Below the pieces are notes generated by a model. It was given only the letters and a program-made list of their open reading frames with translations. It made no database searches and was not told where the DNA came from. From the NCBI GenBank assembly GCA_031459385.1, contig JAVKIP010000035.1, forward strand, positions 1 through 15,701: 15,701 nt of DNA, read 5' to 3'. Shown piece by piece: positions 1 to 15,183 of the stretch (position 1 is its first letter; each line of letters opens with the position of its first letter). The translations under genes were made by a program, and so were the position numbers. Source of the DNA: Candidatus Fervidifonticultor secundus (GTDB taxonomy: Bacteria; Sysuimicrobiota; Sysuimicrobiia; Sysuimicrobiales; Humicultoraceae).

Positions 1-1118
1 GTGGCGGCCCGGGCCTGGCGGCGCCGGTAGCGCAGTTCCCAGGCCAACGCGGCGGACAGTACGACCACCGTCGCCAGCAGAACCAGGGGCGGCTCGCGCT
101 CGATGACCGCGATGTTGAACATGATGAGCACGGTGAAGATGAGCCAGTAGGCCAGCGCCAGGACCCCCACCGTGAAGAAGAACGGACGCTCGGCGGGCCG
201 GCGGCCCCTGCTCCGGTCGAGGAAGGGCACCAGCATCCCGAAGCCGATCAGCAGGCCGGGCCCCAGGCCCGCCCACAGCGGCGGGGTGTACTTCACGTAC
301 TGGTAGAGCCCCAGGAAGTACCAGTCGGAGAGGATGGGCAGCGGCGTACGATTCGGATCGGCCCTGCGGCCGAGCTCAGCGGGGAGCACGTAACTGGTGA
401 ACACCAGCATCCCCAAGAACAGCAGGATCGGGAACCACGACATGTTGAGCCGCCGCCGGCGCGTCCGATAGTAGAAGAGTTCGGCAACGATGAGCAGCAC
501 CAGCGAGATGCCGAAGTGCAGGGCGTAGAACCGGGTGAGGGTCGCGGCGCCCACGGCCGGGCCGCCCAGGAACAGGAAGGCGATCATGGAACCCAGCTGG
601 AATCGCTCACCGATCACCGGGATCTTGGCGGTCAGCTCGTCGAAGTAGACGGGCACGGTCAGCACCGTCTTCGCCGCCCAGAACGCACGCTGATTCCAGA
701 TGAGCAGATAACCCGTGATGCCCGAGATCATGGCCAGGATCAGGCCGGCGAACGCCCACATCCAGCTCAGCTCCCCAGGCTTCTTGTACTCCCCCAGGAA
801 GTACATGCGGTAGATGCGCAAGATGATGGTGACGATGACGCCGTCCGCGGCGTACTTGTGCATGCCGCGCCACAGCCACCCCAGGGGGATCTCGTGCTGG
901 ATGCGCAGGATCGAGTTGTACGCGCCGGTAGGAGTGGGTTCGTACCAGAACATGAGGATGATACCGCTGGCCACGGTCACGATCCAGAAGAAGTACAGCA
1001 TGGGGCCCAACAGGTAGAGGGGGTTCGCCTGCTGACCGACCAGCGTCTCGTCGAAGAGATCGAGCTTGGCGCGACGGTCGCGGTACCACTCCTGTAGGCT
1101 GTCCAGGATGGCGGCCAT
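1..1118 (-). CDS. qcrB: Cytochrome b subunit of a Rieske/cytochrome bc complex, unsplit with about 8 TM helices, atypical (lacks haem bH ligands); 3' end lies outside the window
   Basis: Not in the ORF track because there is no stop in the window. Hand translation from ATG 1118 is open to base 1: MAAILDSLQEWY...SGIILMFWYEPTPTGAYNSILRIQHEIPLGWLWRGMHKYAADG...YKKPGELSW...ITGYLLIWNQRAFWA...IPVIG...GGPAVGAATLTRFYALH...ADPNRTPLPILSDWYFLGLY...LVPFLDR...ERPF. These are cytochrome b/b6 and subunit IV motifs in the expected order, directly downstream of a Rieske gene. Confidence 0.95.
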   Translation of the reverse strand, partial: MAAILDSLQEWYRDRRAKLDLFDETLVGQQANPLYLLGPMLYFFWIVTVASGIILMFWYEPTPTGAYNSILRIQHEIPLGWLWRGMHKYAADGVIVTIILRIYRMYFLGEYKKPGELSWMWAFAGLILAMISGITGYLLIWNQRAFWAAKTVLTVPVYFDELTAKIPVIGERFQLGSMIAFLFLGGPAVGAATLTRFYALHFGISLVLLIVAELFYYRTRRRRLNMSWFPILLFLGMLVFTSYVLPAELGRRADPNRTPLPILSDWYFLGLYQYVKYTPPLWAGLGPGLLIGFGMLVPFLDRSRGRRPAERPFFFTVGVLALAYWLIFTVLIMFNIAVIEREPPLVLLATVVVLSAALAWELRYRRRQARAA

Positions 1119-2790: not shown

Positions 2791-3693
2791 TCAGGCCTCG
2801 GACGACATCCTGGCGATCGCCAGCATCAGACCCACGATCAAGAGGGCGGCCAGCGTCCCGGCGGCCACCGGGGCCAGCCACAACCGCGCCGACGGCACGC
2901 CGGTAATGCTGAGGCGCAAGTCACCCGGCGGTACCGCCCGGGCTGTTGCGCGAGCGTAGACCTGCCCCTCGCTGGTGACCGGTGGCAGGAGCTGGAGCGC
3001 CGGTCCGCGGGCCTCCCCGGGCGCCCGAACGAAGATCTCGATGCGGTCGGCGCCGATCGCCAGGCGACGGTCGAGGGACACCTCGCCCGATCCGCCCACG
3101 GCGTACGCGTACGCCACCTGATGGGCGCCAGGCCTCACGATCAACCGATCGGTGATGGCACCGCCGTCGGCGCGCGGGCGGTGAAACCCGTCACCGAAGG
3201 TGATGTAGCGCGCGCCTCTGGGCAGCGGGAAGGCCACGTCGCCGAGAAATGTCCGGGTCGTCGGGTTCTGGAGGTGGACGACCTCGGAGACGCGCAGGTA
3301 GCCGCGCCAGACCTCCACCGCCACCCCGAGCAGTGCCATGCGCAGCGGAACCTGTGGGGACACATCGTACACCAACACGGTGACCTCGACCGGCCCGCCG
3401 CTCACCACCGCGTGGGTCGCGTACGAGACGCCCTGATGCTGGACGGTGACCAAGTAGCGACCATCGGCCAGACCGCTGAACCCGAATCGCCCGGCGGCAT
3501 CGGTGCGGGCGAGCGCGACGGGCTCCGGCCCCGCGGTGCCGATGAAGACGAGCTGGACCGGCGCCCGCGCGACCACCGAGCCCGCGGTGATGTTGCGCAC
3601 GACACCCCGGACGGCGCTTCCCGCCGACGGTGCCGCCGCCGCGGAAGCCGCGAACAGGCCCACGGCCGCGCAGAGCAGTGCCGCGCCTCTCAT
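2791..3693 (-). CDS. Exported protein with carboxypeptidase-regulatory-like (prealbumin/Ig-like) beta domain and C-terminal membrane anchor
   Basis: ATG 3693 overlaps the upstream TGA (ATGA); signal peptide MRGAALLCAAVGLFAASAAA; pattern ARTDAAGRFGFSGLADGRYLVTV typical of CarboxypepD_reg-like domains; C-terminal TM LAPVAAGTLAALLIVGLMLAIA. The ORF-track extension to 4302 overlaps other genes. Confidence 0.8.
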   Translation of the reverse strand: MRGAALLCAAVGLFAASAAAAPSAGSAVRGVVRNITAGSVVARAPVQLVFIGTAGPEPVALARTDAAGRFGFSGLADGRYLVTVQHQGVSYATHAVVSGGPVEVTVLVYDVSPQVPLRMALLGVAVEVWRGYLRVSEVVHLQNPTTRTFLGDVAFPLPRGARYITFGDGFHRPRADGGAITDRLIVRPGAHQVAYAYAVGGSGEVSLDRRLAIGADRIEIFVRAPGEARGPALQLLPPVTSEGQVYARATARAVPPGDLRLSITGVPSARLWLAPVAAGTLAALLIVGLMLAIARMSSEA

Positions 3694-3953
3694 GGGCCCG
3701 GCGGCGGTATCTTCCGGACGATCGCCGCCAGCTCGCCCTCCAGCGCCGCGCGCTGGGCGCGGTAGTCCTCGTCGGAGAGCTTGCCGGTGCCCCAATCGAG
3801 CTCGAGGTCGCGGAGCGAGCGCAGCGCCGCCGCCTGCGCGGCTTCCAGCGCATCGTGAGGGTCCGGGGAGGGCACCGTGGTCCGCCGGAACGCCGGCGCC
3901 AGCAGGTATGCCGCGGCGGACGCAACGACCAGGAAGAAGACGGCTTCGATCAC
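3690..3953 (-). CDS. Stand-alone CcmI/CycH N-terminal-like membrane protein (87 aa)
   Basis: GTG 3953 overlaps the ccmF stop (GTGA); N-terminal TM followed by LRSLRDLELDWGTGKLSDEDYRAQRAALEGEL, resembling the CcmI cytoplasmic helical segment; position directly after ccmF. Confidence 0.7.
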   Translation of the reverse strand: MIEAVFFLVVASAAAYLLAPAFRRTTVPSPDPHDALEAAQAAALRSLRDLELDWGTGKLSDEDYRAQRAALEGELAAIVRKIPPPGP

Positions 3954-5950
3954 GGCGCGCCGGGAACGCCCTCCGCGGACAGTGGGGCAGACCGCGGGGA
4001 GATCGGTGCCGGCGCCACCCGCCTCCACGTTTCGGGCAGCACGGCGAGGACCACACCCAGCACGATGATGAGTCCCCCGGCCCACAGCCATGAGACCAAC
4101 GGGTGCACCAGCACGCGGATCTGCGCGCGGCCGCCGGTGTCCCACTCCGAGAGGATGATGTACAGATCTTCACGCGGCGAAGACCGGATCGCCACATGGT
4201 GCATCGGCTGCTCTTGCGTGCGATAGAAGAGCCGTTGGGGGGTGAACGTCCCCGCAAACCGCCCGCCGGCCCAGACACGCACCGTGGCCTGGGTGATGTC
4301 AATCCCGGGCTGCTCTGCGGCCGACAGGCCTCCGAACTCCACGGTGTAGCGGCCCACGGCGAACCGCTCGCCGGGGCGCAGCCAGGCCGCAGACTGGGTC
4401 GCGAACGCGCTGCTCCCCGCGATACCCACGAGCATCACCAGGATGCCGAAGTGCACCGTGTAACCGCCGTAGCGCCGGCGGTTCCTCGCCACGAGCCGGA
4501 CCAGGGCGACGGCGGGGCCTTCGCCCCGCCGGACGCGAAGCCTGGTCCCGCGCGCGGCCTCCAGCACGATGGTGGCCAGCACGAAGGCGGAGGCGGCGAA
4601 GACCAGCAGCGCCCCAGGCGAGCGGATCCCGCCCACGGCGAGCACTACTGCCAGTAGCAAGCCAGCAGCCGCCGGGAACGCGAAATTCCGAGCGAGCTGC
4701 TCCGGCGTCGCCCTGCGCCACGGCAGCAGGGGCCCCACGCCCATCAGCAACAGGATCCCCACCGCGATCGGGATCATCACCGTGTTGAAATACGGAGGGC
4801 CGACGTTGATCTTTACGCCGCGGAACGCCTCGGTGATCGCCGGAAAGATGGTGCCGACAAACACCACCACGGTGGCTGCCACGAACAGCAGGTTGTTGGC
4901 CAGGAAGGCCGTCTCGCGGCTGACCACGGACTCCACCGTGCCCCGGCTGCGGAGCAGGTCCCATCGCCAGGCCAGCAGGGCGAACGACCCCACCAGCAGC
5001 AGGGCCAGGAACGCCAGGAAGAAGTACCCGATCGGCGACTGCGCAAAGGCGTGAATGGAGGACAGCACCCCGCTGCGCACCAGGAACGTGCCGAAGATGG
5101 TCAGCCCGAACGTGATGAGCACCAGCGCCACGTTCCAGGTCAAAAGCATCCCCCGCCGCTCCTGGATCTGGATCGAATGGATCCACGCGGTCGCGGTCAG
5201 CCAGGGCATGAATGCCGCGTTCTCCACCGGATCCCAGGCCCAGTACCCGCCCCAGCCCAGCACCACGTACGACCACTTGGCGCCGAACAGCAGGCCCAGG
5301 GTCAGGAACATCCAGGCCACGATCACCCATCGCCGCGAGAGCACGATCCAAGTGTCGTCGAGCCGGCCGGTCACCATGGCCGCCACCACCAGCGCAAAGG
5401 GGACGCTCATGCCGACGAAGCCCAGATACAGCATCGGGGGGTGCGCGGCCATCCAGGGGTTCCGCAGCAGCGGATTGAGCCCCTGACCGTCCGGCGGGGG
5501 TGGCACCAGCGGCGAGAACGGGTTGCTCGCCGTCGCCAGCAGGAGCGAGAAGAACGCGGCGATCACGAACAGGGTGGCCGCCGCAGGCGCCTGAAAGTCC
5601 GGATGGGCGCGCAGGCTGAAGACGCCCACCACCATGTAGAGCGCCAGGATCAGCGCCCACAGGAGCAGCGCGCCGTCGTGGCCGCCCCAGAACGCGGTGA
5701 CGGTGTAGAACGTCGATTGGAGGGTCTCGCTGGCGCCAGCCACGAACCGGACTGAGAAGTCCCTGGCGAGGAAGGCAGCGAACAGCGCTGCCGAGGCCAG
5801 CCCGATCAGCAGGGCCCACACCACCACGGCGCGGCGCCCGGCCGCCAGGAGCCCGCCGTCCCGCCACTTGATGCCCAGCACGGTGACCGCCAGCCCGTAG
5901 AGCGCCACCACCACCGCCGACTGGAGGGCGAACCGGCCGATCTCACCCAC
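3950..5950 (-). CDS. ccmF: Cytochrome c biogenesis haem lyase CcmF
   Basis: WWD motif WGGYWAWDPVEN, QGLNPLL, HPPMLYLG, conserved His in WIHS, SIHAF and TVHFG; 666 aa multi-TM protein; GGAGG RBS before the GTG. Confidence 0.97.
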   Translation of the reverse strand: MGEIGRFALQSAVVVALYGLAVTVLGIKWRDGGLLAAGRRAVVVWALLIGLASAALFAAFLARDFSVRFVAGASETLQSTFYTVTAFWGGHDGALLLWALILALYMVVGVFSLRAHPDFQAPAAATLFVIAAFFSLLLATASNPFSPLVPPPPDGQGLNPLLRNPWMAAHPPMLYLGFVGMSVPFALVVAAMVTGRLDDTWIVLSRRWVIVAWMFLTLGLLFGAKWSYVVLGWGGYWAWDPVENAAFMPWLTATAWIHSIQIQERRGMLLTWNVALVLITFGLTIFGTFLVRSGVLSSIHAFAQSPIGYFFLAFLALLLVGSFALLAWRWDLLRSRGTVESVVSRETAFLANNLLFVAATVVVFVGTIFPAITEAFRGVKINVGPPYFNTVMIPIAVGILLLMGVGPLLPWRRATPEQLARNFAFPAAAGLLLAVVLAVGGIRSPGALLVFAASAFVLATIVLEAARGTRLRVRRGEGPAVALVRLVARNRRRYGGYTVHFGILVMLVGIAGSSAFATQSAAWLRPGERFAVGRYTVEFGGLSAAEQPGIDITQATVRVWAGGRFAGTFTPQRLFYRTQEQPMHHVAIRSSPREDLYIILSEWDTGGRAQIRVLVHPLVSWLWAGGLIIVLGVVLAVLPETWRRVAPAPISPRSAPLSAEGVPGAP

Positions 5951-6098
5951 GGCGCACCTCCTGGGCCGAGCGGCCCTGGGCGTTGCGCTCGGCGATCTGT
6001 CGCTCAGCCTGCTCCATTGAGGACAGCAGCCGGAAGAGCCCGACCAGCAGACCGATCCAGACTACCGCCACCACGAGGACCAGCAGACCTGGCGTCAT
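5943..6098 (-). CDS. Small single-TM protein, CcmD-like (51 aa)
   Basis: ATG 6098, 4 nt after the ccmE stop: MTPGLLVLVVAVVWIGLLVGLFRLLSSMEQAERQIAERNAQGRSAQEVRRG. Hydrophobic helix plus charged helical tail; exactly fills the ccmE-ccmF gap and overlaps the ccmF start. Confidence 0.65.
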   Translation of the reverse strand: MTPGLLVLVVAVVWIGLLVGLFRLLSSMEQAERQIAERNAQGRSAQEVRRG

Positions 6099-6102
6099 GC
6101 GC

Positions 6103-6486
6103 TCAGTGGTCGGGCGCCTTGTATTCCGGGGGGTGAGTCGAGATGACCTGCGCGGCCTGGATGACTCCGGCGCCGTCCACGCGGCCTTCGACGAGGACCT
6201 CCCGGCCTTCGGCAAACAGGTCGGGCAGCGGGCCGCCATAGTGCACCTCGTACGGCGTGAGGCCGTCGGTGATCGCGAAGCGAATCAGGCCCTCGGTCTT
6301 GACCACCGATCCGGGTACCACGCGGCCGGCCATGCGGATCTTGTTGTGGCGCAGCTCGGGCTTGGACTTGAACTCGGTCGGGGTCAGGTAGTAGACCATG
6401 GACGACCGCACGCCCTGGTAGGCCACGAAGCCCAGAGCCGCCACGATGATGGCCGAGGCGACCACCAGCTTGCGCTTGGTGCTCAC
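6103..6486 (-). CDS. ccmE: Haem chaperone CcmE
   Basis: N-terminal TM, YYLTPTE, IRMAGRVVPGSV, YGGPLPDLFAEGREVLVEG, and C-terminal HxxxY haem motif (HPPEY). Confidence 0.95.
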   Translation of the reverse strand: MSTKRKLVVASAIIVAALGFVAYQGVRSSMVYYLTPTEFKSKPELRHNKIRMAGRVVPGSVVKTEGLIRFAITDGLTPYEVHYGGPLPDLFAEGREVLVEGRVDGAGVIQAAQVISTHPPEYKAPDH

Positions 6487-6614
6487 GCCTGGTTCCTCGG
6501 CGACGTGGAAGCGTCCGCCATCTCGGCGATGAGCCGCTGTCGGCCGATCAACGTCAGCACGTAGGCCACGAACAACGCGGCGACAATCAGGTAGGCGGCG
6601 GCCACGAAGCCCAT
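6483..6614 (-). CDS. ccmD: Haem exporter protein CcmD (43 aa)
   Basis: Too short for the ORF track. ATG 6614 directly after the ccmC stop: MGFVAAAYLIVAALFVAYVLTLIGRQRLIAEMADASTSPRNQA*. F-V-x-A-A-Y start, TM and basic tail; stop overlaps the ccmE GTG; canonical position between ccmC and ccmE. Confidence 0.8.
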   Translation of the reverse strand: MGFVAAAYLIVAALFVAYVLTLIGRQRLIAEMADASTSPRNQA

Positions 6615-6615
6615 C

Positions 6616-7290
6616 CTAGGCCTCTTCCAACGCTTCGATGAGCCGGGCCAGCGCCTGCTCCTGGCGCACGCGGATCGCGAGCAGCGCCGCGAACACCAGC
6701 ACGAATGCCAGGACGTTGACCAGCAGGGGCAGCAACATGCTGGCAGGCAGCGCTGGTCCCTCTGGCCTGAACACCGTCGGCTGGGGGTGCAGCGTGCGCA
6801 GCAGGATCGCCGACCAGTGGATCAGCGGGATGTCCAGCACGCCGATGATGCCGATGACCGCTGCGGCGCGCGCACCGCGGACACCCGGCGCCCATGCGCG
6901 GACGGCCAAGTAGCCCATGTAGATGAACCAGAGGATCAGCGTCGTCGTCAACCGCGCGTCCCAGGTCCACCACGTCCCCCAGACCGGCTTGCCCCAGATC
7001 GCGCCGGAGACCAGCGTCATGGAGATGAACAGGACCGCCAGCTCCGCGGCGCCGTGCGCCAGTCGGTCCCACCGGTCGTCGCGCTTCCACAGGAAGAGGA
7101 CGCTGCCCACGAACACCACGGCCAGGGCCCCATAAGCCGTGATCACGCTCGGCACGTGGATGTACATGATACGCTGGGGGATGCCCTGGATGACCTCGGT
7201 CGGCGCTGCCAGCAGCGCCCATGCCACACCCACCAGCATGAGCAACGTTCCGGCCACCAACAGGGGACGCGTCACGGGGAAAACGGTCAC
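6616..7290 (-). CDS. ccmC: Haem exporter/chaperone-loading protein CcmC
   Basis: RIMYIHVP, WWD motif WGKPVWGTWWTWDARLT, IHWS and RTLHP. Confidence 0.97.
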   Translation of the reverse strand: MTVFPVTRPLLVAGTLLMLVGVAWALLAAPTEVIQGIPQRIMYIHVPSVITAYGALAVVFVGSVLFLWKRDDRWDRLAHGAAELAVLFISMTLVSGAIWGKPVWGTWWTWDARLTTTLILWFIYMGYLAVRAWAPGVRGARAAAVIGIIGVLDIPLIHWSAILLRTLHPQPTVFRPEGPALPASMLLPLLVNVLAFVLVFAALLAIRVRQEQALARLIEALEEA

Positions 7291-7934
7291 TCCTCTAAGA
7301 CGAATTCGAAGAGCAGCCAGCTCGCGGTTAGCACGAGTATATCAAAGGCCCCCATCAACTGCAATTGGGCGCGGACGGCGGAAACCGGCGCCCCGTCTAG
7401 GATTGCGGCGGTGGCGCTGACCGCGGCGATGAGCAGGGGGAGCGTCACGGGCAACATGAGGAGGGGCAGCATGGCTTCGCGCAACCGTGTCTGCACCAAC
7501 AGGCCGCCAAACAGCGTGCCCGCGGCCGCGAGCCCCACACCGCCCAGGACGACGGGCAGCACCAGGGGCCACAGGCGGGTCCAGGCCGCCTCGGTGAAGA
7601 GCGCACCGAACGCCGGCAGCGAGATCACCTGCACGGCCACCAGCAGTAACCAGTTGGCCAGCGTCTTGGCCAGGAAGATGACGCCGCCGTCGACGGGTGC
7701 CAGGCGCAGCGCGGTCGCGTGATCGCGCTCCAGGGCCAGCGTGCGCGTGAATCCCAACGTGGCCGCGAACGCATAGGTGACCCACATGGCGGCCGGCGCG
7801 CTGGCCCGGTCCGAGCGCGCGGCGCCCAGCACCACCACCAGCAGGAACGCCAGTAGACCCACCGCCGTGGTGATCTCGCGGGTCCGCCACTCCAGGCGCA
7901 GGTCCTTGGCGACGAGGAGCACGAGGGTTCTCAC
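7287..7934 (-). CDS. ccmB: Haem exporter permease CcmB
   Basis: KDLRLEWR N-terminus, about 6 TM helices, LPLLMLPVTLPLLI motif; lies between ccmA and ccmC with 4-nt overlaps. Confidence 0.92.
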   Translation of the reverse strand: MRTLVLLVAKDLRLEWRTREITTAVGLLAFLLVVVLGAARSDRASAPAAMWVTYAFAATLGFTRTLALERDHATALRLAPVDGGVIFLAKTLANWLLLVAVQVISLPAFGALFTEAAWTRLWPLVLPVVLGGVGLAAAGTLFGGLLVQTRLREAMLPLLMLPVTLPLLIAAVSATAAILDGAPVSAVRAQLQLMGAFDILVLTASWLLFEFVLEE

Positions 7935-8632
7935 CAGCGGCTCCCGTGGAACCAGGCGGCCAGGCGCGCGTCATCCACGCTGTTGGCCGGCATGATCTCG
8001 GTGAGACGGCCGCCAAGCAACACGGTGATGCTGGCGTGCAGGTCCCGGGCCTCGGCCAGATCGTGGGTCGCAAACACGATGGTGCGGCCGCGTTGCGCTT
8101 CTTCCCGCAGCACCGCCGTCAGCCGGCCGCTGGCGGTCACGTCCAGACCGGTGTAGGGCTCATCGAGGATGAGCACGTCCGGATTGTGCAGCACCGCCCG
8201 CGCCAGATTCACCTGCTGTCGCTGGCCGCGCGAGAGGACCCTCACCCGGCGGTGCGCCAGTGGCTCCAGCGCCGCCTGCGCCAGCACGCCGGCCACGCGA
8301 TCGGCGCCCAGGCCGTAGAGGCCGGCGAAGAAGTGCAGGTTCTCGGTCACCGTGAGGTTGTCGTAGAGGAGCGACTCGTGGGCCACCAGCCCGATGCGGC
8401 GACGGATCTGGGGGTGAGGCGAGGCTGGACGGCCGAAGAGGACCACAGACCCCCGCGTGGGCGGCGACAGCGTGGCGATCACGCGCAACAGGGTCGTCTT
8501 GCCCGACCCGTTGGCCCCCAGCACCGCCAGGGTCAGCCCGGCGGGTACGCTGAGATCCGCCCCGCGGAGCACCGGTCGGTGGTCGTAGGACTTGGTGACC
8601 CCGCGCACCTCGATGGCCGCAACTCCACTCAT
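7931..8632 (-). CDS. ccmA: Haem exporter ABC ATPase CcmA
   Basis: Walker A GANGSGKT, LTVTENL, signature LSRGQRQQ, Walker B LILDEP, H-loop ATHD; first gene of the ccm cluster. Confidence 0.93.
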   Translation of the reverse strand: MSGVAAIEVRGVTKSYDHRPVLRGADLSVPAGLTLAVLGANGSGKTTLLRVIATLSPPTRGSVVLFGRPASPHPQIRRRIGLVAHESLLYDNLTVTENLHFFAGLYGLGADRVAGVLAQAALEPLAHRRVRVLSRGQRQQVNLARAVLHNPDVLILDEPYTGLDVTASGRLTAVLREEAQRGRTIVFATHDLAEARDLHASITVLLGGRLTEIMPANSVDDARLAAWFHGSRW

Positions 8633-10230
8633 CTGGCTGAGGGATCCTGCGTCGAGGCTGCGTCATCGGAGACCAGCAGGTCCACCACGGCCTCGACGTC
8701 TTCCACGCGGTGCAGGACGAAGGGGTACCCACGGTGGGCGGCGACATCGGCGTCGGCCTGCAGGTGATTCAGCCGGTCGAGCGCAGCCTGGACCTCGGCC
8801 ACCTGGTCGGCCACCGCGACCCGCAGGATGGCATTCAGCTCCCTGATGCGCCGGGTCGCGGCCCGTCTCTCGCGCCGGGTCAGCGCGGCGGCCTGCTCCA
8901 GCTGGCGGATGAGCGCCCACTTCTCCTCGACCAGGACCCGGTGTGCGCCCTCGGGCACGAGGAACCGTTCGGGATTGTGCTGCAGGTCCAGCAGACGCCG
9001 CGCCAGGCGCTGGCGCTCCAGGACGACGGAGCCTCCCGAGGCGAACGGCAGGAAGAGGGTGGCAGTGGCGGCCGCGTAGGCCGGCGGGGCGATCCCGAAG
9101 AACGCCCGGACGACTGCGTCGGTGGCGCGATCGTAGCGGGCGCCGCCCACGCCGTGGATGAAGAGGTCGCAGATTGCCAGGCGCACGAACGCCGTGAGGG
9201 TCAGCGCCCGGGGCCGCAGCGGCATGGCGGCAAACGCCGGCTCGTCGGGGTCCTCGGGCAGTCGGCCCACAACCCGGTGCCCGGCGGCGATGGCTCGGCT
9301 GGCGGGCTCGACGAACACCGGCCAGCGCTGGCCGTCGGCGAGGTACCAGAACGGCACCTCGACCCGGTCCGGCGCGATCGTCAGGTCGGGAAACGGCTGG
9401 GCCGCTGTTCGGATCCCGTAGTGCTCGCGATACGCGTCCAGGCAGGCGTTGTGGATCTCGGCGAAGCGCACCGCGTCCCGCATGATGGCCAGCGCGAACC
9501 TCCGGAACGCCGGCATGCCCGACATGACGGACACCGGCAGGTCCACGTAGGCCCGCGGGCCCTCCAGCCGCCGGCGCAGGGCCGTGATGGCACCGGCCAG
9601 TCCTCCCGGGGATCTTGGGGGCCACAGGGCCCGGGCTCGTCCCCAGGCCTCGGCGATCGGGCCGCTGCCGAGCGTGGCGAGGTAAGCGTCCACGGACGTG
9701 GCCAGGCGGCGCCAGTCGTCCTCGGTGGGAGCCGGGAGCAGCTCGAACGGCACCGTCGGCCCTCCGCGGGCCAGCGGTACCCGCGTCCGGCGCAGCCGCC
9801 CGTCGTCGTGGGGGACTTCCACCGCGATCTCGTCGGCAGCGTCGCTGTCCACGATGATGGCCAGACCCATCCCGTCTTGAGGCACGACGCGTGCCAGCGC
9901 CAGGTACTTGATCCAGATGCCGGGGTGCACGAACACCGGCTGGTGCCCGGTGGCCAGCAGCACCCCGGTTCGCCCGGACTCCACGGCGATCCCCAGCCGC
10001 CGGGTGTAGTCCGCGGCCCGGGCCAGCGCTTCCACCCGCGCGGTGCGGCGCAGCACCCCCAGCGGGACGCCAGCGATCTCCACCGCAGCCCCATCGAGGG
10101 CCTCCCGGTTCTGCCGGGCGCGCTCCAGCCACTCCCTCACGGGCGGGCGAGCCACGGCCGCCGGCGATGCCTGCGGGATCTCGAGCCCCACCTCCGGCCA
10201 CACCCCGTGGTCGGCGATTCCACCCGACAT
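8629..10230 (-). CDS. Uncharacterised 533-aa protein, probable distant BshC-like ligase
   Basis: ATG 10230 overlaps the deacetylase stop (TGATG). Motif order ATGHQP..HPGIWIK / IIVDSD / LRPRAL / DLFIHGVGGARYD / C-terminal coiled coil parallels BshC (TGQQ / EDHD / LRP / YxGGPGE / coiled coil). The CDS is solid; the family assignment is my recognition, not a search result. Confidence 0.6.
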   Translation of the reverse strand: MSGGIADHGVWPEVGLEIPQASPAAVARPPVREWLERARQNREALDGAAVEIAGVPLGVLRRTARVEALARAADYTRRLGIAVESGRTGVLLATGHQPVFVHPGIWIKYLALARVVPQDGMGLAIIVDSDAADEIAVEVPHDDGRLRRTRVPLARGGPTVPFELLPAPTEDDWRRLATSVDAYLATLGSGPIAEAWGRARALWPPRSPGGLAGAITALRRRLEGPRAYVDLPVSVMSGMPAFRRFALAIMRDAVRFAEIHNACLDAYREHYGIRTAAQPFPDLTIAPDRVEVPFWYLADGQRWPVFVEPASRAIAAGHRVVGRLPEDPDEPAFAAMPLRPRALTLTAFVRLAICDLFIHGVGGARYDRATDAVVRAFFGIAPPAYAAATATLFLPFASGGSVVLERQRLARRLLDLQHNPERFLVPEGAHRVLVEEKWALIRQLEQAAALTRRERRAATRRIRELNAILRVAVADQVAEVQAALDRLNHLQADADVAAHRGYPFVLHRVEDVEAVVDLLVSDDAASTQDPSAR

Positions 10231-10913
10231 CAGATCAGGCCATCCCACCGGACCACGCCGATCTCCTCCCGGCAGATGAAGGCTTCGCCATACCGCCGGT
10301 GGATGAGGCGGCCCCAGTAGCCGTTGGTCTCGCGGATCGTCTCGATGATCCAGCCGGTGCCTCGCGCTTCGCCGAACTGGGACTCGTAGGCGGCGATCGA
10401 GGCCAGCTTGGCGTCCATGTAGTCCGAGATGTCCACGATGAATGAGGGCTTGACGTGCAGCCGGTAGTGGGTGCTGAAGAAGTGGTACACGCGCCGCGGA
10501 TAGTGCGGCTCCCCCTTCATCGCGGTCCGGGTGAGTTTGGCGGTGAAGCGCGCTGCCTCACACAGCGCGCAGGCGGCCACGTGGTCCGGATGGGCGTCCG
10601 ACCAGTATGGGACGAACATGGCGTCCGGCCGCACCTCCCGGATGACCTCAGCCACCTGCACCCGTGCCTCGATGGTGTCCTGGAGATAGCGGTTGGGCAG
10701 CGCTAGAGTGATCCGGCGCTGCACACCCAGCAGGCGCGCGGCGGCGGCGGCCTCGGCGGCGCGGCGTTGGGGCGTGCCCAGGGGTGTGGGTTCGCCATCG
10801 GTGAGGTCGCAAAGCACGACGTCGTGGCCCTGGGCCAGCAGCCAGCACACCGTGCCGCCCATGGCGATCTCCACGTCGTCGGGGTGCGGGCCTATGGCGA
10901 GGAGACGGGCCAC
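10230..10913 (-). CDS. bshB1: PIG-L/LmbE family de-N-acetylase, BshB1-like
   Basis: GTG 10913 with GAGGTG RBS; Zn motifs GPHPDDVE and DAHPDH; DLTDGE; PSFIVDIS..KLASIAAYESQF; YGEAF. The substrate may differ from GlcNAc-malate. Confidence 0.82.
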   Translation of the reverse strand: MARLLAIGPHPDDVEIAMGGTVCWLLAQGHDVVLCDLTDGEPTPLGTPQRRAAEAAAAARLLGVQRRITLALPNRYLQDTIEARVQVAEVIREVRPDAMFVPYWSDAHPDHVAACALCEAARFTAKLTRTAMKGEPHYPRRVYHFFSTHYRLHVKPSFIVDISDYMDAKLASIAAYESQFGEARGTGWIIETIRETNGYWGRLIHRRYGEAFICREEIGVVRWDGLI

Positions 10914-11605
10914 CGCTTCACCTCTCGGTCGATCACCTCGTGGTAGTATCGCCGACGGACCTCGGGATCGTCCAGCCCGCCCCAGAACCGGCGGGCGGGA
11001 TTCTTGTAGATCCGCGCGGTCGCCAGCTCCCGTACCCGCAGGCCGTGGTGGGCCGCCTGCACCCACACCTGCAACGGCAGCCCGTACGAGGGCTCGGAGA
11101 GCCGCAGCCGTCGCAGGGCCTCGACGCGGTACGCCTTGAACCCACAGAACGCGTCGGTGAGCGGATAGCCGGTCAGGGCCCGAAGCCTGGCGGTGATTTC
11201 CTCGTTCAGGTGCCGCCGGTCCGGCGGCGCCGGATCGCCGCCGACAGCCGGATCCAGGTACCGGCTGCCGGAGACGATGTCTGCGCCAGCCAGCGCAGCG
11301 ACAAACTGGGGAATCTGGTGAGGCTCGTGCTGCTCGTCGCAATCCAGCGTGACCACCGCGTCGTAGCCATGGGCGGCCGCGTAGGCAAACCCGTCAATCA
11401 ACGACTGGCCGTAGCCTTCATTCTCCCGATGCGTGAGCACCGTCACATCCGCGTACGCCTTCAGGATCTCGGCCGACCCATCGGTGGATCCGTCATCGAC
11501 CACCAGCACGTCACACCCCTGCGCCCACCGCTGCACTTCCCGGAGGACCCGGTCAACCGTTGGCGCCTCGTTGTACAGAGGCAGCACCACCAGGGTGCGG
11601 GGCAT
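10892..11605 (-). CDS. Glycosyltransferase family 2 (DPM1/Ppm1-like, no C-terminal TM)
   Basis: LPLYNE, VVDDGSTDGS, NEGYG, DxD motif TLDCDEQH, VSGSRY, TDAFCGFKAY. Confidence 0.93.
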   Translation of the reverse strand: MPRTLVVLPLYNEAPTVDRVLREVQRWAQGCDVLVVDDGSTDGSAEILKAYADVTVLTHRENEGYGQSLIDGFAYAAAHGYDAVVTLDCDEQHEPHQIPQFVAALAGADIVSGSRYLDPAVGGDPAPPDRRHLNEEITARLRALTGYPLTDAFCGFKAYRVEALRRLRLSEPSYGLPLQVWVQAAHHGLRVRELATARIYKNPARRFWGGLDDPEVRRRYYHEVIDREVKRWPVSSP

Positions 11606-11611
11606 GGACGG

Positions 11612-12301
11612 CTACAGGAGCTTGATGCCGTTGATCTGTAACTTGAATCCGCACCCCAGAAATTCCGCGGCGCGGCGGCACATCAGCATCCGATCCAGGA
11701 AGATCTCGAAGTATTCCATGACCTGGGAGATGGCCGTGTCGATGGTCAGCTCCAGGGTCACCGTCTTGCTCTTCTCGTCCACACGCAGGAATGAGTGCTC
11801 CACGGCATAGTTCACCCGGTCATGGATGTCGAATGTGGACCGGTCGGGGTTGCGAACCCTGGTGCGGTGCACGTCAGACTTGTCGGCCAGGATCACCGCG
11901 GCGCCCACGGGACTGATGGCCTCGCCGTGCCGCTCCTCGTGGTTGCCGATGGCGCCCATGACCACGGCCCGCTCGTCAGGCGACATGCCCAACCGCCCGA
12001 GGATGTCATTGGCCAGCACGGCACCCGTGTGCTCGTGATTGGCCCGGCTCACCAGATTGCCCACATCGTGCAAGTACGCGGCGATGGCGGCGAGCTGTGC
12101 CGTGCGCTCGTTGAACCCCAGGCGGCGCAGGACGTTGGCCGCGATGTTCGCCGTCAGGTTGGCGTGACGCAGGCCGTGCTCGGTGTAGCCGATGACCCCA
12201 GTGTACTCATTGGCCTTGACCAGGAGCGCCTCGACCTCGGGATCTCGCTTGACATCTTCCAGGGTCGGCGTACCCGGTGCCGTCCCCCGTTCGTTGGTCA
12301 C
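11612..12301 (-). CDS. HD-domain metal-dependent phosphohydrolase
   Basis: H...HD...D signature: TEHGLRHA, AAYLHDVGN, HEHTG, GNHEE, ILADKSD; GTG overlaps the yajC stop. Confidence 0.92.
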   Translation of the reverse strand: MTNERGTAPGTPTLEDVKRDPEVEALLVKANEYTGVIGYTEHGLRHANLTANIAANVLRRLGFNERTAQLAAIAAYLHDVGNLVSRANHEHTGAVLANDILGRLGMSPDERAVVMGAIGNHEERHGEAISPVGAAVILADKSDVHRTRVRNPDRSTFDIHDRVNYAVEHSFLRVDEKSKTVTLELTIDTAISQVMEYFEIFLDRMLMCRRAAEFLGCGFKLQINGIKLL

Positions 12302-12591
12302 TCTTCGGCCTTCGCCTCGCCTTTCGCACGCACGTAGCTCACCGATCCCCGGTCAGCCTTGACCCGGACGTTGGGCGCCAGATCCAGGGTGAGCAGGTCA
12401 TCCTTGATGTCCGCGATGGTGGCGTGCAACCCGCCCAGCGTGACCACCCGGTCGCCCCGCCTCAGGTTGTTCAGCATTTCTCGGCGCTTCCTCTGCTGCG
12501 TCCGCTGCGGCCTGATCATGAGCACATAGAAAACCACGAAGATCAGGACCCACAGGAGCAGTACTGTGATCTGAGACTGCTGAGCCGGCAT
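12298..12591 (-). CDS. yajC: Preprotein translocase subunit YajC
   Basis: TM + FYVLMIRPQ + LRRGDRVVTLGGLH; GGAGG RBS; follows tgt as is usual. Confidence 0.96.
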   Translation of the reverse strand: MPAQQSQITVLLLWVLIFVVFYVLMIRPQRTQQRKRREMLNNLRRGDRVVTLGGLHATIADIKDDLLTLDLAPNVRVKADRGSVSYVRAKGEAKAEE

Positions 12592-12654
12592 CCGCTGCTC
12601 CTCCCACCTGTGAACCGTCAGCCATCCGTTCTGCGATGGGCAGGTGTCTCCTGC

Positions 12655-13767
12655 TCACCACGCAGTAGTATACGCTGCCAGCACATCCCGCATCCACGCC
12701 GCGTAGCGGCCGGCGCGCAGCGCCGCCCGCGCCTCCTTCACCATGCGGCCCACGAATGCCAGATTGTGGTAGGTAGCCAGGCGCGGGCCCAGCATCTCGT
12801 CGGCGTGGAACAGGTGGCGCAGGTAGGCGCGCGTGGTTGTAGTGCACACGCGGCAGGTGCACGACGGGTCGGGCGGCGACAGGTCGGCGCGATAGCGCCC
12901 GTTGCGGATGTTGAGGCGACCGGCGGCCGTGAAGATGGTCCCGGTCCGCGCCACGCGGGTCGGCAGGACACAGTCGAACAGGTCGATGCCCCGGGCGATG
13001 CCGTGCAGGATACCCGGAATCGATCCGACGCCCATGAGGTAGCGAGGGCTGGCCTGTGGGAGTTCCGGCACCACGGCATCGAGCATCTCGTAGGTGAGTT
13101 CGGGCGCCTCGCCCACGGACAGGCCGCCGATCGCATATCCAGGGAAACCAAGGGCTACGGTGCGGCGCGCGGCCTCCCGTCGGAGATCGGTGTCCAGCCC
13201 GCCCTGCACGATCCCAAACAACACGCCGAGGCCCATGCGGTCGTGATGAGCCCGCGCCCGGGCCGCCCAGTGCAGCGTCCGCTCCAGCGCCGAGCGCGCC
13301 TCCTGCGCCTCGTGCGGGTAGCCGAGGCACACGTCCAGGGGCATCAGCACGTCGGCGCCCAGGCGGCGCTGGATGTCCACGACGCCCTCGGGCGTGAACC
13401 GGTGGACCGTGCCGTCAATCGGCGATCGGAACGTGACGCCGTCGTCATCGAGCTGTCGCATGGTGGCCAGGCTGAAGACCTGGAACCCGCCGCTGTCCGT
13501 GAGGATAGGACCACTCCAGCCCATGAACCCATGGAGCCCGCCCGCCGTCTCGATGATCTCCACCCCCGGTCTCAAGTAGAGGTGGAACGCATTGGCCAGG
13601 ATCATCTGGGCACCGGTCTCCCGGACCTCGTCCGGCGTGAGCGCGCGCACGGTGGCGTTGGTGCCCACCGGCATGAACGCCGGGGTCTCCACGATGCCGC
13701 GGGCCAGGCTCAGCCGGCCAAGACGCGCGCGGGTCTGCTGGTCGGCTGCGAGGACGTCGAACCGCAT
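12655..13767 (-). CDS. tgt: tRNA-guanine(34) transglycosylase
   Basis: ATG 13767 (MRFDVLAAD, 370 aa); TPAFMPVGT, TDSGGFQVFSL, GIVQGG, GYAIGGLSVGE, PRYLMGVG, FDCVLPTR, Zn site CTCRVC...HN. Confidence 0.98.
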   Translation of the reverse strand: MRFDVLAADQQTRARLGRLSLARGIVETPAFMPVGTNATVRALTPDEVRETGAQMILANAFHLYLRPGVEIIETAGGLHGFMGWSGPILTDSGGFQVFSLATMRQLDDDGVTFRSPIDGTVHRFTPEGVVDIQRRLGADVLMPLDVCLGYPHEAQEARSALERTLHWAARARAHHDRMGLGVLFGIVQGGLDTDLRREAARRTVALGFPGYAIGGLSVGEAPELTYEMLDAVVPELPQASPRYLMGVGSIPGILHGIARGIDLFDCVLPTRVARTGTIFTAAGRLNIRNGRYRADLSPPDPSCTCRVCTTTTRAYLRHLFHADEMLGPRLATYHNLAFVGRMVKEARAALRAGRYAAWMRDVLAAYTTAW

Positions 13768-13790
13768 GTGCGCACCGGCCTGCCGCCGTC

Positions 13791-15071
13791 TCAGGGATAG
13801 ATGCCCCGGATCGTCAGGGCGTCGGCGACACGCTGCACCGCCCGCAGCAGCGCCGCCGCCCGCATCGTGACGCCCTCGGCCTGGGCCAGCGCGACCACCC
13901 CGCGGACGCTTCGCACCATGATCTGCTCCAGCCGACGATTGATCTCGTCTTCGTCCCAGAACAGCGACTGGAGGTCTTGCACCCATTCGAAGTACGAGAC
14001 GATCACACCCCCGCTGTTGGCCAGGATATCGGGCACCACCAGGATCCCCCGATCCGCCAGAATCTCGTCAGCCTCGGGAGTGGTGGGCCCGTTGGCGCCC
14101 TCCACGATCACCCTGGCCGCGATCCGTCCGGCGTTCTCGCCCGTGATCTGGCCCTCGAGGGCGGCCGGAACCAGGTAGTCGCAAGGCAACTCGAGGAGGT
14201 CGCGGTTGCTGATGGGCTCGCAGCCCGGGAACCCGACGACGGTCTTGCTTCGGGCCACGTGCGCCTGGAGCCCAGGCAGGTCCAGGCCCCTGGGGTTGTA
14301 GATGCCGCCGTTGACGTCGCTGGCGGCGATGATGGTGCACCCCTCGTCCCACATCAGGCGCGCCGTCGCCTCGCCGACGTTCCCGAATCCCTGCACGACG
14401 ACCCGCGCGCCCGTCCAGGGCAGGCCGTGCAGACGCGCCACCTCCCTGGCCGAGAGCATCACCCCGCGGCCGGTCGCCTCTCTCCTGCCGACCGACCCGC
14501 CGAGGGGCACCGGCTTTCCGGTGGTGACCGCTGGCGTGACCCGGCCCCGCTGCATGCTGAAGGTGTCCATGATCCAGGCCATGATCTGGGCGTTGGTCCC
14601 CACGTCCGGCGCCGGAATGTCGCCGTAGGGGCCCATGAGCACGCTGATCTCGGCCGCAAACCGCCGCGTCAGCCGTTCCAGTTCTGGCCCGGACAGCGTC
14701 TGAGGGTCCACCACCACCCCGCCCTTGGCGCCACCGTACGGCAGGTGCACCAGGGCGCACTTCCACGTCATCCACATGGCCAGCGCCCGCACCTCGTTGA
14801 GGGTCACACCGGGGTGGTAGCGGATGCCGCCCTTGGTGGGACCCAGCACCATGTTGTGGTGCACGCGGTAACCCGTGAAGATCTCGATGCGGCCGTCGTC
14901 CATCTTGACAGGAAAGCCAACGGTCAGCTCACGCTGCGGGGTCGCCAGGAACTTCTCGACGCCGGGGGCGAGGCGAAGGCGCCGCGACGCCACATAGAAC
15001 TGCGCCTGCGCCATCGCCCACGGATCGCCGGCGGCCGCCTTCGCGGCCGACGCGCGGAACTCCGGACTCAC
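13791..15071 (-). CDS. gdhA: Glutamate dehydrogenase (Glu/Leu/Phe/Val dehydrogenase family)
   Basis: GTG 15071 with AAGGAGG RBS 7 nt upstream; [49 protein letters not shown]. Catalytic and glutamate-specificity Lys/Ser residues are present. Confidence 0.96.
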
Positions 15072-15078
15072 AACGTCC

Positions 15079-15085
15079 CCTCCTT
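15079..15085 (-). promoter_or_regulatory. Shine-Dalgarno site of gdhA
   Basis: AAGGAGG on the minus strand, 7 nt before GTG 15071. Confidence 0.8.
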
Positions 15086-15183
15086 CGATGGCGGTTGCTT
15101 CCTGTCGGTCCCTGCGAACTCCTGTCAAGTGAGCCGCCCAAGCGTACGGCGGGCTCGAAACCGCCGCGTCGGGCCCGGGGTGG

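Follow-up and report, generated by a model that had tools for sequence, protein, structure and literature searches.

Can the three-step chemistry of bacillithiol start from a glycosyltransferase of an unrelated family, and what would such a pathway make? This question is raised by a locus of Candidatus Fervidifonticultor secundus (Sysuimicrobiota), carried by contig JAVKIP010000035.1 of assembly GCA_031459385.1. The whole 15,701-nt stretch analysed here is referred to as the window. On its minus strand, three successive genes, referred to as the trio, encode a family 2 glycosyltransferase (GT2), a zinc deacetylase of the BshB1 type, and a protein that we call BshC-like. An earlier note made from the sequence alone had reported three overlapping, co-directional genes, and these were present as follows, with a length of 533 aa reproduced from ATG 10230 for the third.

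10892..11605, minus strand: GT2 glycosyltransferase, 237 aa, in place of BshA (PF00535, E = 3.6e-28)
10230..10913, minus strand: BshB1-type PIG-L/LmbE zinc deacetylase, ~227 aa (PF02585, E = 5.4e-25; TIGR04001)
8629..10230, minus strand: divergent BshC-like protein, 533 aa, putative amino-acid (Cys) ligase (BshC fold of the model)

The GT2 and deacetylase genes overlap by 22 nt, and a GAGG motif is found 7 nt 5' of the deacetylase GTG; from the sequence, GTG 10913 is the most likely start. The stop codon of the deacetylase gene and the start codon of the BshC-like gene share TGATG (an overlap of 1 nt; ATG 10230). The alternative start chosen by the open reading frame (ORF) finder, GTG 10248, would give 539 aa instead of 533 aa.

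From gene identities, folds, conservation, and the absence of the canonical genes, all of which were observed and are described below, we infer the chemical steps, donor, acceptor, amino acid, and thiol role of a soluble cytoplasmic pathway of the bacillithiol/mycothiol type. In step 1, the GT2 would move an N-acetylhexosamine, probably the N-acetylglucosamine (GlcNAc) of UDP-GlcNAc, onto a small anionic acceptor. The BshB1-type zinc deacetylase would then liberate the 2-amino group, and the BshC-like enzyme would use an amino acid, most likely cysteine, to acylate this amine. This would yield Cys-hexosamine-X, a low-molecular-weight thiol whose aglycone and/or anomeric linkage would probably be unlike the α-linked glucosamine (GlcN) of bacillithiol, α-GlcN-L-malate. 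We put the chance of such a soluble bacillithiol-type pathway, with an unrelated GT-A first enzyme and a Cys-hexosamine thiol of other aglycone or linkage as its product, at about even. The product is most likely an undescribed Cys-aminosugar compound related to, and not identical with, bacillithiol.

The third protein has the predicted fold of BshC

No match to the third protein was found in Pfam (even at E ≤ 10), in NCBIfam, or, by sequence (phmmer and profile), in the Protein Data Bank (PDB). A direct sequence route to BshC was tried and dropped; phmmer and the first family profile, searched against the PDB, both missed the B. subtilis BshC structure (4WBD). None of 51 representatives of the BshC-like family matched PF10079 or PF24850 at E ≤ 0.01. 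The structural model of the protein (pLDDT 91.2, pTM 0.86) was then compared with known structures. With Foldseek, 4WBD was returned at E = 3.1e-10 with a probability of 1.00 over 543 columns, and the next match stood at 1e-3. VIA-align superposed 453 residues of the model (17-528) on the 4WBD chain (12-531) with Z = 24.7 and a root-mean-square deviation of 5.6, followed by class I LysRS (Z = 18.8, 275 residues), CysRS (10.5), and MshC (9.9). The ESM Atlas's own model of the protein had TM scores of 0.60-0.69 to clusters bearing PF10079 (BshC). The architecture comprises a Rossmann core of the class I aminoacyl-tRNA synthetase (aaRS) type with a connective domain, and a C-terminal coiled coil, as in BshC.

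When a family profile of 57 sequences was aligned by hhalign with 13 canonical BshC sequences, the probability was 76.9% and the E value 2.1e-5 over 310 colinear columns. The paired motifs (BshC-like/BshC) were GHQ/GQQ, DxD/DHD, and HGxGGxxY/AGPGExxY, and the signature of the BshC-like family is GHQ with a following HPG, versus GQQ in BshC. Judged from its model, the third protein is BshC-like, having the same fold and standing outside the curated BshC models, and the two are probably of common origin. Because the model covers the full-length BshC fold, all three steps of the bacillithiol/mycothiol pathways are represented in the trio. By analogy, the BshC-like enzyme is a putative Cys ligase. 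The three-step logic with another first enzyme, as the earlier note had proposed, is supported by the fold of the third gene product, as well as by the synteny and the missing canonical genes described below.

Residues 128-218 of the BshC-like protein (window ~9577-9849) weakly matched the C-terminal portions of RNA-polymerase-binding proteins of the CarD type in the PDB (E = 0.0026-0.019, or ~0.003-0.02). These matches probably reflect chance or a shared helical motif.

The deacetylase is of the BshB1 type and lacks an arginine at the substrate site

The deacetylase exceeded the cut-off of the TIGR04001 BshB1 equivalog model (182.5 bits) with 204.1 bits for the window protein and 207.8 bits in the genome search, and it matched B. 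cereus BshB (2IXD) at E = 5e-39. Its residues H7, D9, D10, R48, H105, D107, and H108 correspond to H12, D14, D15, R53, H110, D112, and H113 of 2IXD. In the portion of the BshB study available to us, His12, Asp15, and His113 are the zinc ligands and Asp14 is catalytic, with Arg53, His110, and Asp112 also listed; Arg109 touches GlcNAc-malate in docking, and the conservative substitution R109K reduces activity on GlcNAc-Mal (PMC4101496).

The position of Arg109 is occupied by Ala104 in the window protein. Among 81 loci searched, 70 yielded a deacetylase match, and in these GT2-linked deacetylases the residue was Ala in 69 and Thr in 1. In the unlinked deacetylases of two planctomycete genomes, it was Val in one and Ala in the other. 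By contrast, Arg is present in 2IXD, in 1UAN, and in four of five canonical BshB1 proteins taken from genomes with a canonical BshC. The replacement of Arg109 in linked deacetylases is therefore, at the sequence level, a systematic and strong tendency that is not diagnostic, because one of the five canonical proteins also lacks Arg there. The gene for that protein (G100:C111:87799-88455) lies 35 nt after a canonical BshC gene, and its product scores 271.9 bits.

The GT2 resembles polyprenyl-phosphate enzymes and has no membrane segment

The transferase of the cassette is not of the family 4 (GT4)/GT-B type, as neither the BshA fold nor the BshA family was found; it is a PF00535/GT-A protein instead. 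Its best NCBIfam matches were polyprenyl/dolichyl-phosphate glycosyltransferases, all far under their cut-offs (71.3 vs 375, 61.8 vs 370, and 49.5 vs 529 bits). A model built on 29 homologues (pLDDT 93.8) matched PfDPMS (5mlz; E = 1.2e-15, TMq 0.77), ArnC (1.5e-14), and GpgS (3e-12) in Foldseek, and the fold match to GpgS/MpgS had TMq values of 0.68-0.72. In profile searches against the PDB, the matches were polyprenyl-phosphate enzymes only (PfDPMS, 7e-23; ArnC, 2e-19), with no match to GpgS/MpgS at E ≤ 1e-5. On the GpgS/MpgS side, NF010496 gave 25.3 bits against a cut-off of 262.

Across the 29 sequences, D88, D90, Q92, H93, and R115 (the DxDxQH motif and the GSR-Y arginine) were invariant or nearly so and aligned with D89, D91, Q93, H94, and R117 of PfDPMS. 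E13 and R130, the equivalents of DPMS Glu12 and Arg131, were also kept, whereas DPMS Lys178 is not conserved. In the accessible text of the DPMS study, the equivalents of E13, D88/D90/Q92/H93, R115, and R130 contact the metal-diphosphate and the acceptor phosphate, and two helices sit in the membrane and hold dolichol (PMC5526996). The counterparts of these interface helices in the GT2 family are polar, with a mean hydropathy (KD) of -0.8 and 36-38% charged residues in the 29 sequences. The GT2 of the window contains no membrane segment, with a maximum 19-residue hydropathy (KD19) of 0.95 as compared with 2.5-2.8 for CcmB and CcmC, and in the 29 family members, for which the top KD19 was 1.64, no segment was as hydrophobic as these controls. 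Because the GT2 lacks a membrane segment and its interface-helix equivalents are polar, the sequence makes a soluble product likelier than a lipid-linked one. The DPM1-type motifs make inversion to a β-linkage plausible, and no more than that, because retaining GT-A enzymes such as GpgS have nearly the same fold.

The trio is conserved in several phyla, and canonical BshC was not found in the genomes of its own

We next examined the distribution of the BshC-like family, which comprises 3771 clusters at 50% identity (E ≤ 0.001), 2051 of them at E ≤ 1e-30. Among 600 pattern matches listed from one-genome-per-species contigs, at least 567 were relatives. In listings of family matches, all source names given were "hypothetical protein" or "uncharacterized protein". 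Neighbourhoods were compared for the best 80 of these at least 567 relatives, with approximate gene calls from a simple ORF picker. The 80 loci belong to Sysuimicrobiota (Ca. Fervidifonticultor, Sysuimicrobium, and CSP1-3), Coriobacteriia and other Actinomycetota, Nitrospinota, Planctomycetota/Brocadiia, and Limnochordales. In 67 of the 74 loci with at least 1.6 kb of upstream DNA, the GT2, deacetylase, and BshC-like genes occurred in that order and on the same strand. The GT2 gene stood immediately 5' of the BshC-like gene without a deacetylase between them in 5 of the 74, mostly planctomycetes. Thus the two genes were linked in 72/74, and neither arrangement was seen in 2/74. Since order and strand recur in 67 of the 74 related loci, the arrangement of the trio is not due to chance.

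In Sysuimicrobiota, the BshC-like gene was found in 90 of 94 genomes, including 53 of the 54 of high quality, and was single copy in 85 of the 90 carriers. Canonical BshC was found in none of the 94, and BshA exceeded the cut-off in only one (two unpublished genomes, G016 and G024, are counted in all three tallies). Five cassette-bearing genomes from other phyla likewise had no canonical BshC. The lone canonical BshA (G022:C314:1808-2920; 521.8 bits) occurs in a bin that is 59% complete, consists of 490 contigs, and has no canonical BshC; its contig is possibly foreign.

The source bin contains no canonical BshC, and its best GT4 protein scores 99.6 bits against the BshA cut-off of 273.7. Profile searches of the bin also detected no GshA, GshB, or MshD over cut-off. 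At a completeness of 97.6% and a contamination of 5.5% for the bin, these absences are likely rather than proven. The earlier note had considered that the trio might not be syntenic in other genomes, or that a canonical bshA elsewhere might supply GlcNAc-malate. Neither was found: the full gene order recurs in several phyla, canonical BshC is missing from the bin and from the 94 genomes of the phylum, and a canonical BshA occurs in only one of these.

In Sysuimicrobiota the trio is found beside genes for cytochrome c maturation

The window has a G+C content of ~70% and consists of a single long run of minus-strand genes. The genes around the trio are the following.

13791-15128, minus strand: glutamate dehydrogenase
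12655-13986, minus strand: tRNA-guanine transglycosylase
12298-12591, minus strand: yajC
11612..12301, minus strand: HD-domain protein, 229 aa (PF01966, E = 4.9e-7)
7931..8632, minus strand: ccmA (TIGR01189, 139 bits vs cut-off 131.6)
7287..7934, minus strand: ccmB (PF03379, E = 5e-18)
6616..7290, minus strand: ccmC (PF01578, E = 3.9e-32)
6103..6486, minus strand: ccmE (PF03100, E = 3.5e-23)
3950..5950, minus strand: ccmF (PF16327, E = 4.2e-71)
2791-3950, minus strand: CarboxypepD_reg-domain protein, ~300 aa
1838-2881, minus strand: dihaem cytochrome c
3-1118, minus strand: cytochrome b

The BshC-like stop codon and the ccmA start codon meet in ATGA, and 4-nt overlaps are found at ccmA/ccmB and ccmB/ccmC. 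From these junctions, the trio is co-oriented and appears translationally coupled with ccmABC in the source lineage. At most, this coupling suggests that the compound is supplied in step with the maturation of cytochrome c. We also considered whether the cassette thiol replaces the CcmG/CcmH/DsbD reductant route. This idea was dropped: genes for CcmH and a DsbD/CcdA-type protein are present at other places in the bin, as they are in the two genus mates, and the cassette is therefore not a simple replacement of the usual route.

In other Sysuimicrobiota, the genes upstream of the trio include URO-D, ferrochelatase, porphobilinogen (PBG) deaminase, ALAD, and a class-III aminotransferase (5-8 loci each), as well as a MerR-type regulator, and downstream lie ccmABCEF and cytochromes c and b. 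Together, the haem, trio, and ccm/cytochrome genes form a supercluster for haem, the unknown compound, and cytochrome c in Sysuimicrobiota. In 9 loci, a gene for a CarboxypepD_reg-domain protein follows ccmF and precedes those for the dihaem cytochrome c and cytochrome b. In Coriobacteriia/Actinomycetota-type loci, an OsmC-family gene stands directly 5' of the GT2 gene (15 loci), a gene for a small 2x[4Fe-4S] ferredoxin lies 3' of the BshC-like gene (7 loci), and a Crp-type regulator, a cytochrome b5-like protein, and a response-regulator/T2SSE ATPase are encoded farther upstream. No flippase, GtrA, or GT-C gene recurred near the trio in the 80 loci.

The gene for the HD-domain protein ends 6 nt before the GT2 gene and adjoins the trio only in the closest family-level lineage. 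The protein is better conserved than the trio (79-89% aa identity in the closest loci); no PDB sequence match was found for it, and its NCBIfam matches were weak only. A role as the phosphatase of the pathway, in case the GT2 acceptor were phosphorylated, was considered and set aside as speculation for a protein without a PDB match that is linked in the closest lineage only.

The same bin contains a second copy of the whole block of HD, GT2, deacetylase, BshC-like, and ccmABC..F genes (G000:C2:56000-72000, as compared with window 3739-15034), and the two BshC-like copies share ~58-60% aa identity. The second block is 84% identical at the nucleotide level to a genome of the same genus, G001, whereas the window is only 71% identical to it; G001 and another congener, G002, each have a single copy. 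Because the second copy is closer to G001 and the congeners are single-copy, the window contig may be foreign to the bin, having been binned along with it from another, related organism, or the window may represent an old duplication.

The window was found in hot-spring metagenomes of one study (word share 0.67-0.75) and in a metatranscriptome library from that study (0.44). Over 3900-13000, contigs from the metatranscriptome reach 28 of 30 bins, with no significance attached to the two left uncovered, and they span the HD/GT2, GT2/deacetylase, and BshC-like/ccmA junctions. Expression of the trio is thus possible, although such contigs cannot prove a single transcript and DNA carry-over in the library is possible.

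DISCUSSION

The three-step logic of the trio is shared with bacillithiol biosynthesis by BshA, BshB1, and BshC (Bacillus, Staphylococcus, Deinococcus-Thermus, and Chlorobiota), as are a deacetylase that passes the BshB1 model with its catalytic residues kept and a third enzyme with the predicted BshC fold, including the C-terminal coiled coil. The two differ in the first enzyme, a metal-type GT-A/GT2 protein in the cassette and a metal-independent GT4 protein in bacillithiol synthesis. In addition, PF10079, PF24850, and TIGR03998 do not detect the cassette ligase, the Arg109 position holds Ala, Thr, or Val, the cassette genes form one overlapping operon, and YpdA and the bacilliredoxins were not found in the bin. 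Unlike canonical BshC, the BshC-like gene does not co-occur with a GT4 BshA (1/94 vs 90/94 for the BshC-like gene). The mycothiol enzymes MshA, MshB, and MshC likewise comprise a glycosyltransferase, a PIG-L deacetylase, and a Cys ligase of the class I aaRS fold, but MshA is a GT4 protein, MshC is a CysRS paralogue that matches the third-protein model only weakly (Z = 9.9), and no MshD over cut-off was found in the bin.

The GT2 shares the DxDxQH motif and the equivalents of Glu12, Arg117, and Arg131 with PfDPMS (5MLZ), ArnC, GtrB, and PpgS. It differs from them in having no transmembrane domain, polar interface-helix equivalents, Asn in place of Ser135, no Lys178, and scores far under every NCBIfam cut-off. 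GpgS (GT81) and MpgS come near the GT2 in size and fold (TMq ~0.70); both are soluble GT-A enzymes with a small anionic hydroxy acid as acceptor, but they had no profile match at E ≤ 1e-5, are retaining, and lack DxDxQH as far as the alignments show.

In the text available to us, papers on bacillithiol and mycothiol describe pathways with GT4 BshA/MshA only (PMC5790435, PMC7278568, and PMC6282198). A term search of the accessible portion of the Sysuimicrobiota paper (PMC11604079) found no mention of thiols. Within a literature search that excluded subscription journals and supplements, we found no description of bacillithiol or BshC paired with a family 2 glycosyltransferase, nor of the BshC-like family.

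Several observations weigh against a soluble pathway to a new cysteine thiol. The third protein lies below or outside all curated BshC models (TIGR03998, PF10079, and PF24850), and with a narrower profile of 29 sequences, hhalign gave only 4.5% probability and E = 0.0089 against canonical BshC. The BshC reaction itself has never been reconstituted in vitro, according to the available part of PMC5790435, and the label "cysteine ligase" is therefore inherited from Bacillus genetics. Of the bacillithiol partners, YtxJ/BrxC and BrxA/B were not found in the source bin, nor was a YpdA/Bdr over cut-off. Some control genomes of known bacillithiol producers are likewise missed by the BrxA/B and YtxJ models. 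The closest solved relatives of the GT2 by sequence all use polyprenyl phosphate, and the GT2 keeps the equivalents of Arg117 and Arg131, which belong to the acceptor-phosphate site of DPMS, with Asn134 replacing Ser135; by sequence, the kept residues would be equally compatible with a lipid phosphate and with a small anion. One of the five canonical BshB1 proteins has Val at the Arg109 position. Linkage to ccm is restricted to the lineage, with ccmA ≤400 nt downstream of the trio in 27 of 69 loci.

Three other explanations were weighed. Ordinary bacillithiol would be made if the GT2 were a BshA analogue, installed by non-homologous replacement, that produces GlcNAc-L-malate. The GT2 fold lies near those of GpgS and MpgS, two GT-A enzymes that attach a sugar to the 2-OH of a hydroxy acid; the deacetylase passes the BshB1 equivalog model, and Arg109 is likewise missing from one canonical BshB1. 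We nevertheless consider this outcome improbable in view of the altered Arg109 position in 70/70 linked deacetylases, a ligase too diverged for any BshC model, the lack of a YpdA over cut-off in the bin, and the grouping of the GT2 by sequence with the inverting DPM1/ArnC enzymes and not with GpgS, given that bacillithiol is an α-glycoside. A lipid-linked aminosugar would result if the GT2 loaded GlcNAc on polyprenyl phosphate at the inner membrane face, the PIG-L protein deacetylated it, and the BshC-like protein aminoacylated it for export or the envelope. PIG-L is known to deacetylate GlcNAc-phosphatidylinositol (GlcNAc-PI), and by both sequence and fold the GT2 is most closely related to DPMS, ArnC, and GtrB. 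Its family shows no variation in the DxDxQH motif or in the counterparts of Arg117/Arg131 at the Dol-P phosphate site. Short polyprenyl-phosphate GT2 enzymes without a membrane part also exist (the PpgS model, 226 positions), and the trio lies within a ccm operon acting at the membrane. This route is assigned a small probability, as the interface-helix equivalents are polar and charged, 0/29 family members are as hydrophobic as CcmB/CcmC, Lys178 is not conserved, no flippase, GtrA, or GT-C gene recurs nearby, and the deacetylase resembles BshB1 rather than the lipid-acting members.

The product might also be no thiol at all, if the BshC-like protein added another amino acid or had another role, leading to an osmolyte, a cofactor precursor, or a secondary metabolite. 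Consistent with this, the available part of one study leaves the chemistry of BshC unestablished (PMC5790435), the signature motif differs from that of BshC (GHQ and HPG vs GQQ), and bacillithiol-dependent enzymes were not detected in the bin. However, the BshC-like gene is near-universal across the phylum and single-copy in 85/90 carriers, which fits a core rather than a secondary metabolite; redox neighbours (OsmC, ferredoxin, and ccm) recur, and the bin yielded no other thiol pathway. A non-thiol product is therefore regarded as unlikely. The soluble pathway to a Cys-hexosamine thiol of other aglycone or linkage remains the reading that we favour.

In the accessible text of Hiras et al. 2018, Planctomycetes, Verrucomicrobia, and Spirochaetes are among the lineages without a documented or predicted low-molecular-weight thiol, and genome-directed searches are urged in organisms with partial pathways (PMC6282198). 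The cassette is a concrete candidate for the missing thiol of such lineages. As a very divergent BshC relative in an operon with the enzymes likely to make its substrate, the BshC-like protein may also help to resolve the BshC reaction. Cultured Gimesia and Maioricimonas strains carry the gene, named "hypothetical protein", and the product can therefore be sought directly in them. A wider and more doubtful proposal, which we hold only tentatively, is that the cassette makes a new cysteine-aminosugar thiol serving as the principal redox buffer in Planctomycetota (anammox relatives included), Nitrospinota, Sysuimicrobiota, and many Coriobacteriia, and that in Sysuimicrobiota its synthesis from one transcript with CcmABC would tie reductant supply to haem attachment to cytochromes c. 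If this is true, an unrecognised thiol would be the main redox buffer of several large lineages that have no documented or predicted small thiol.

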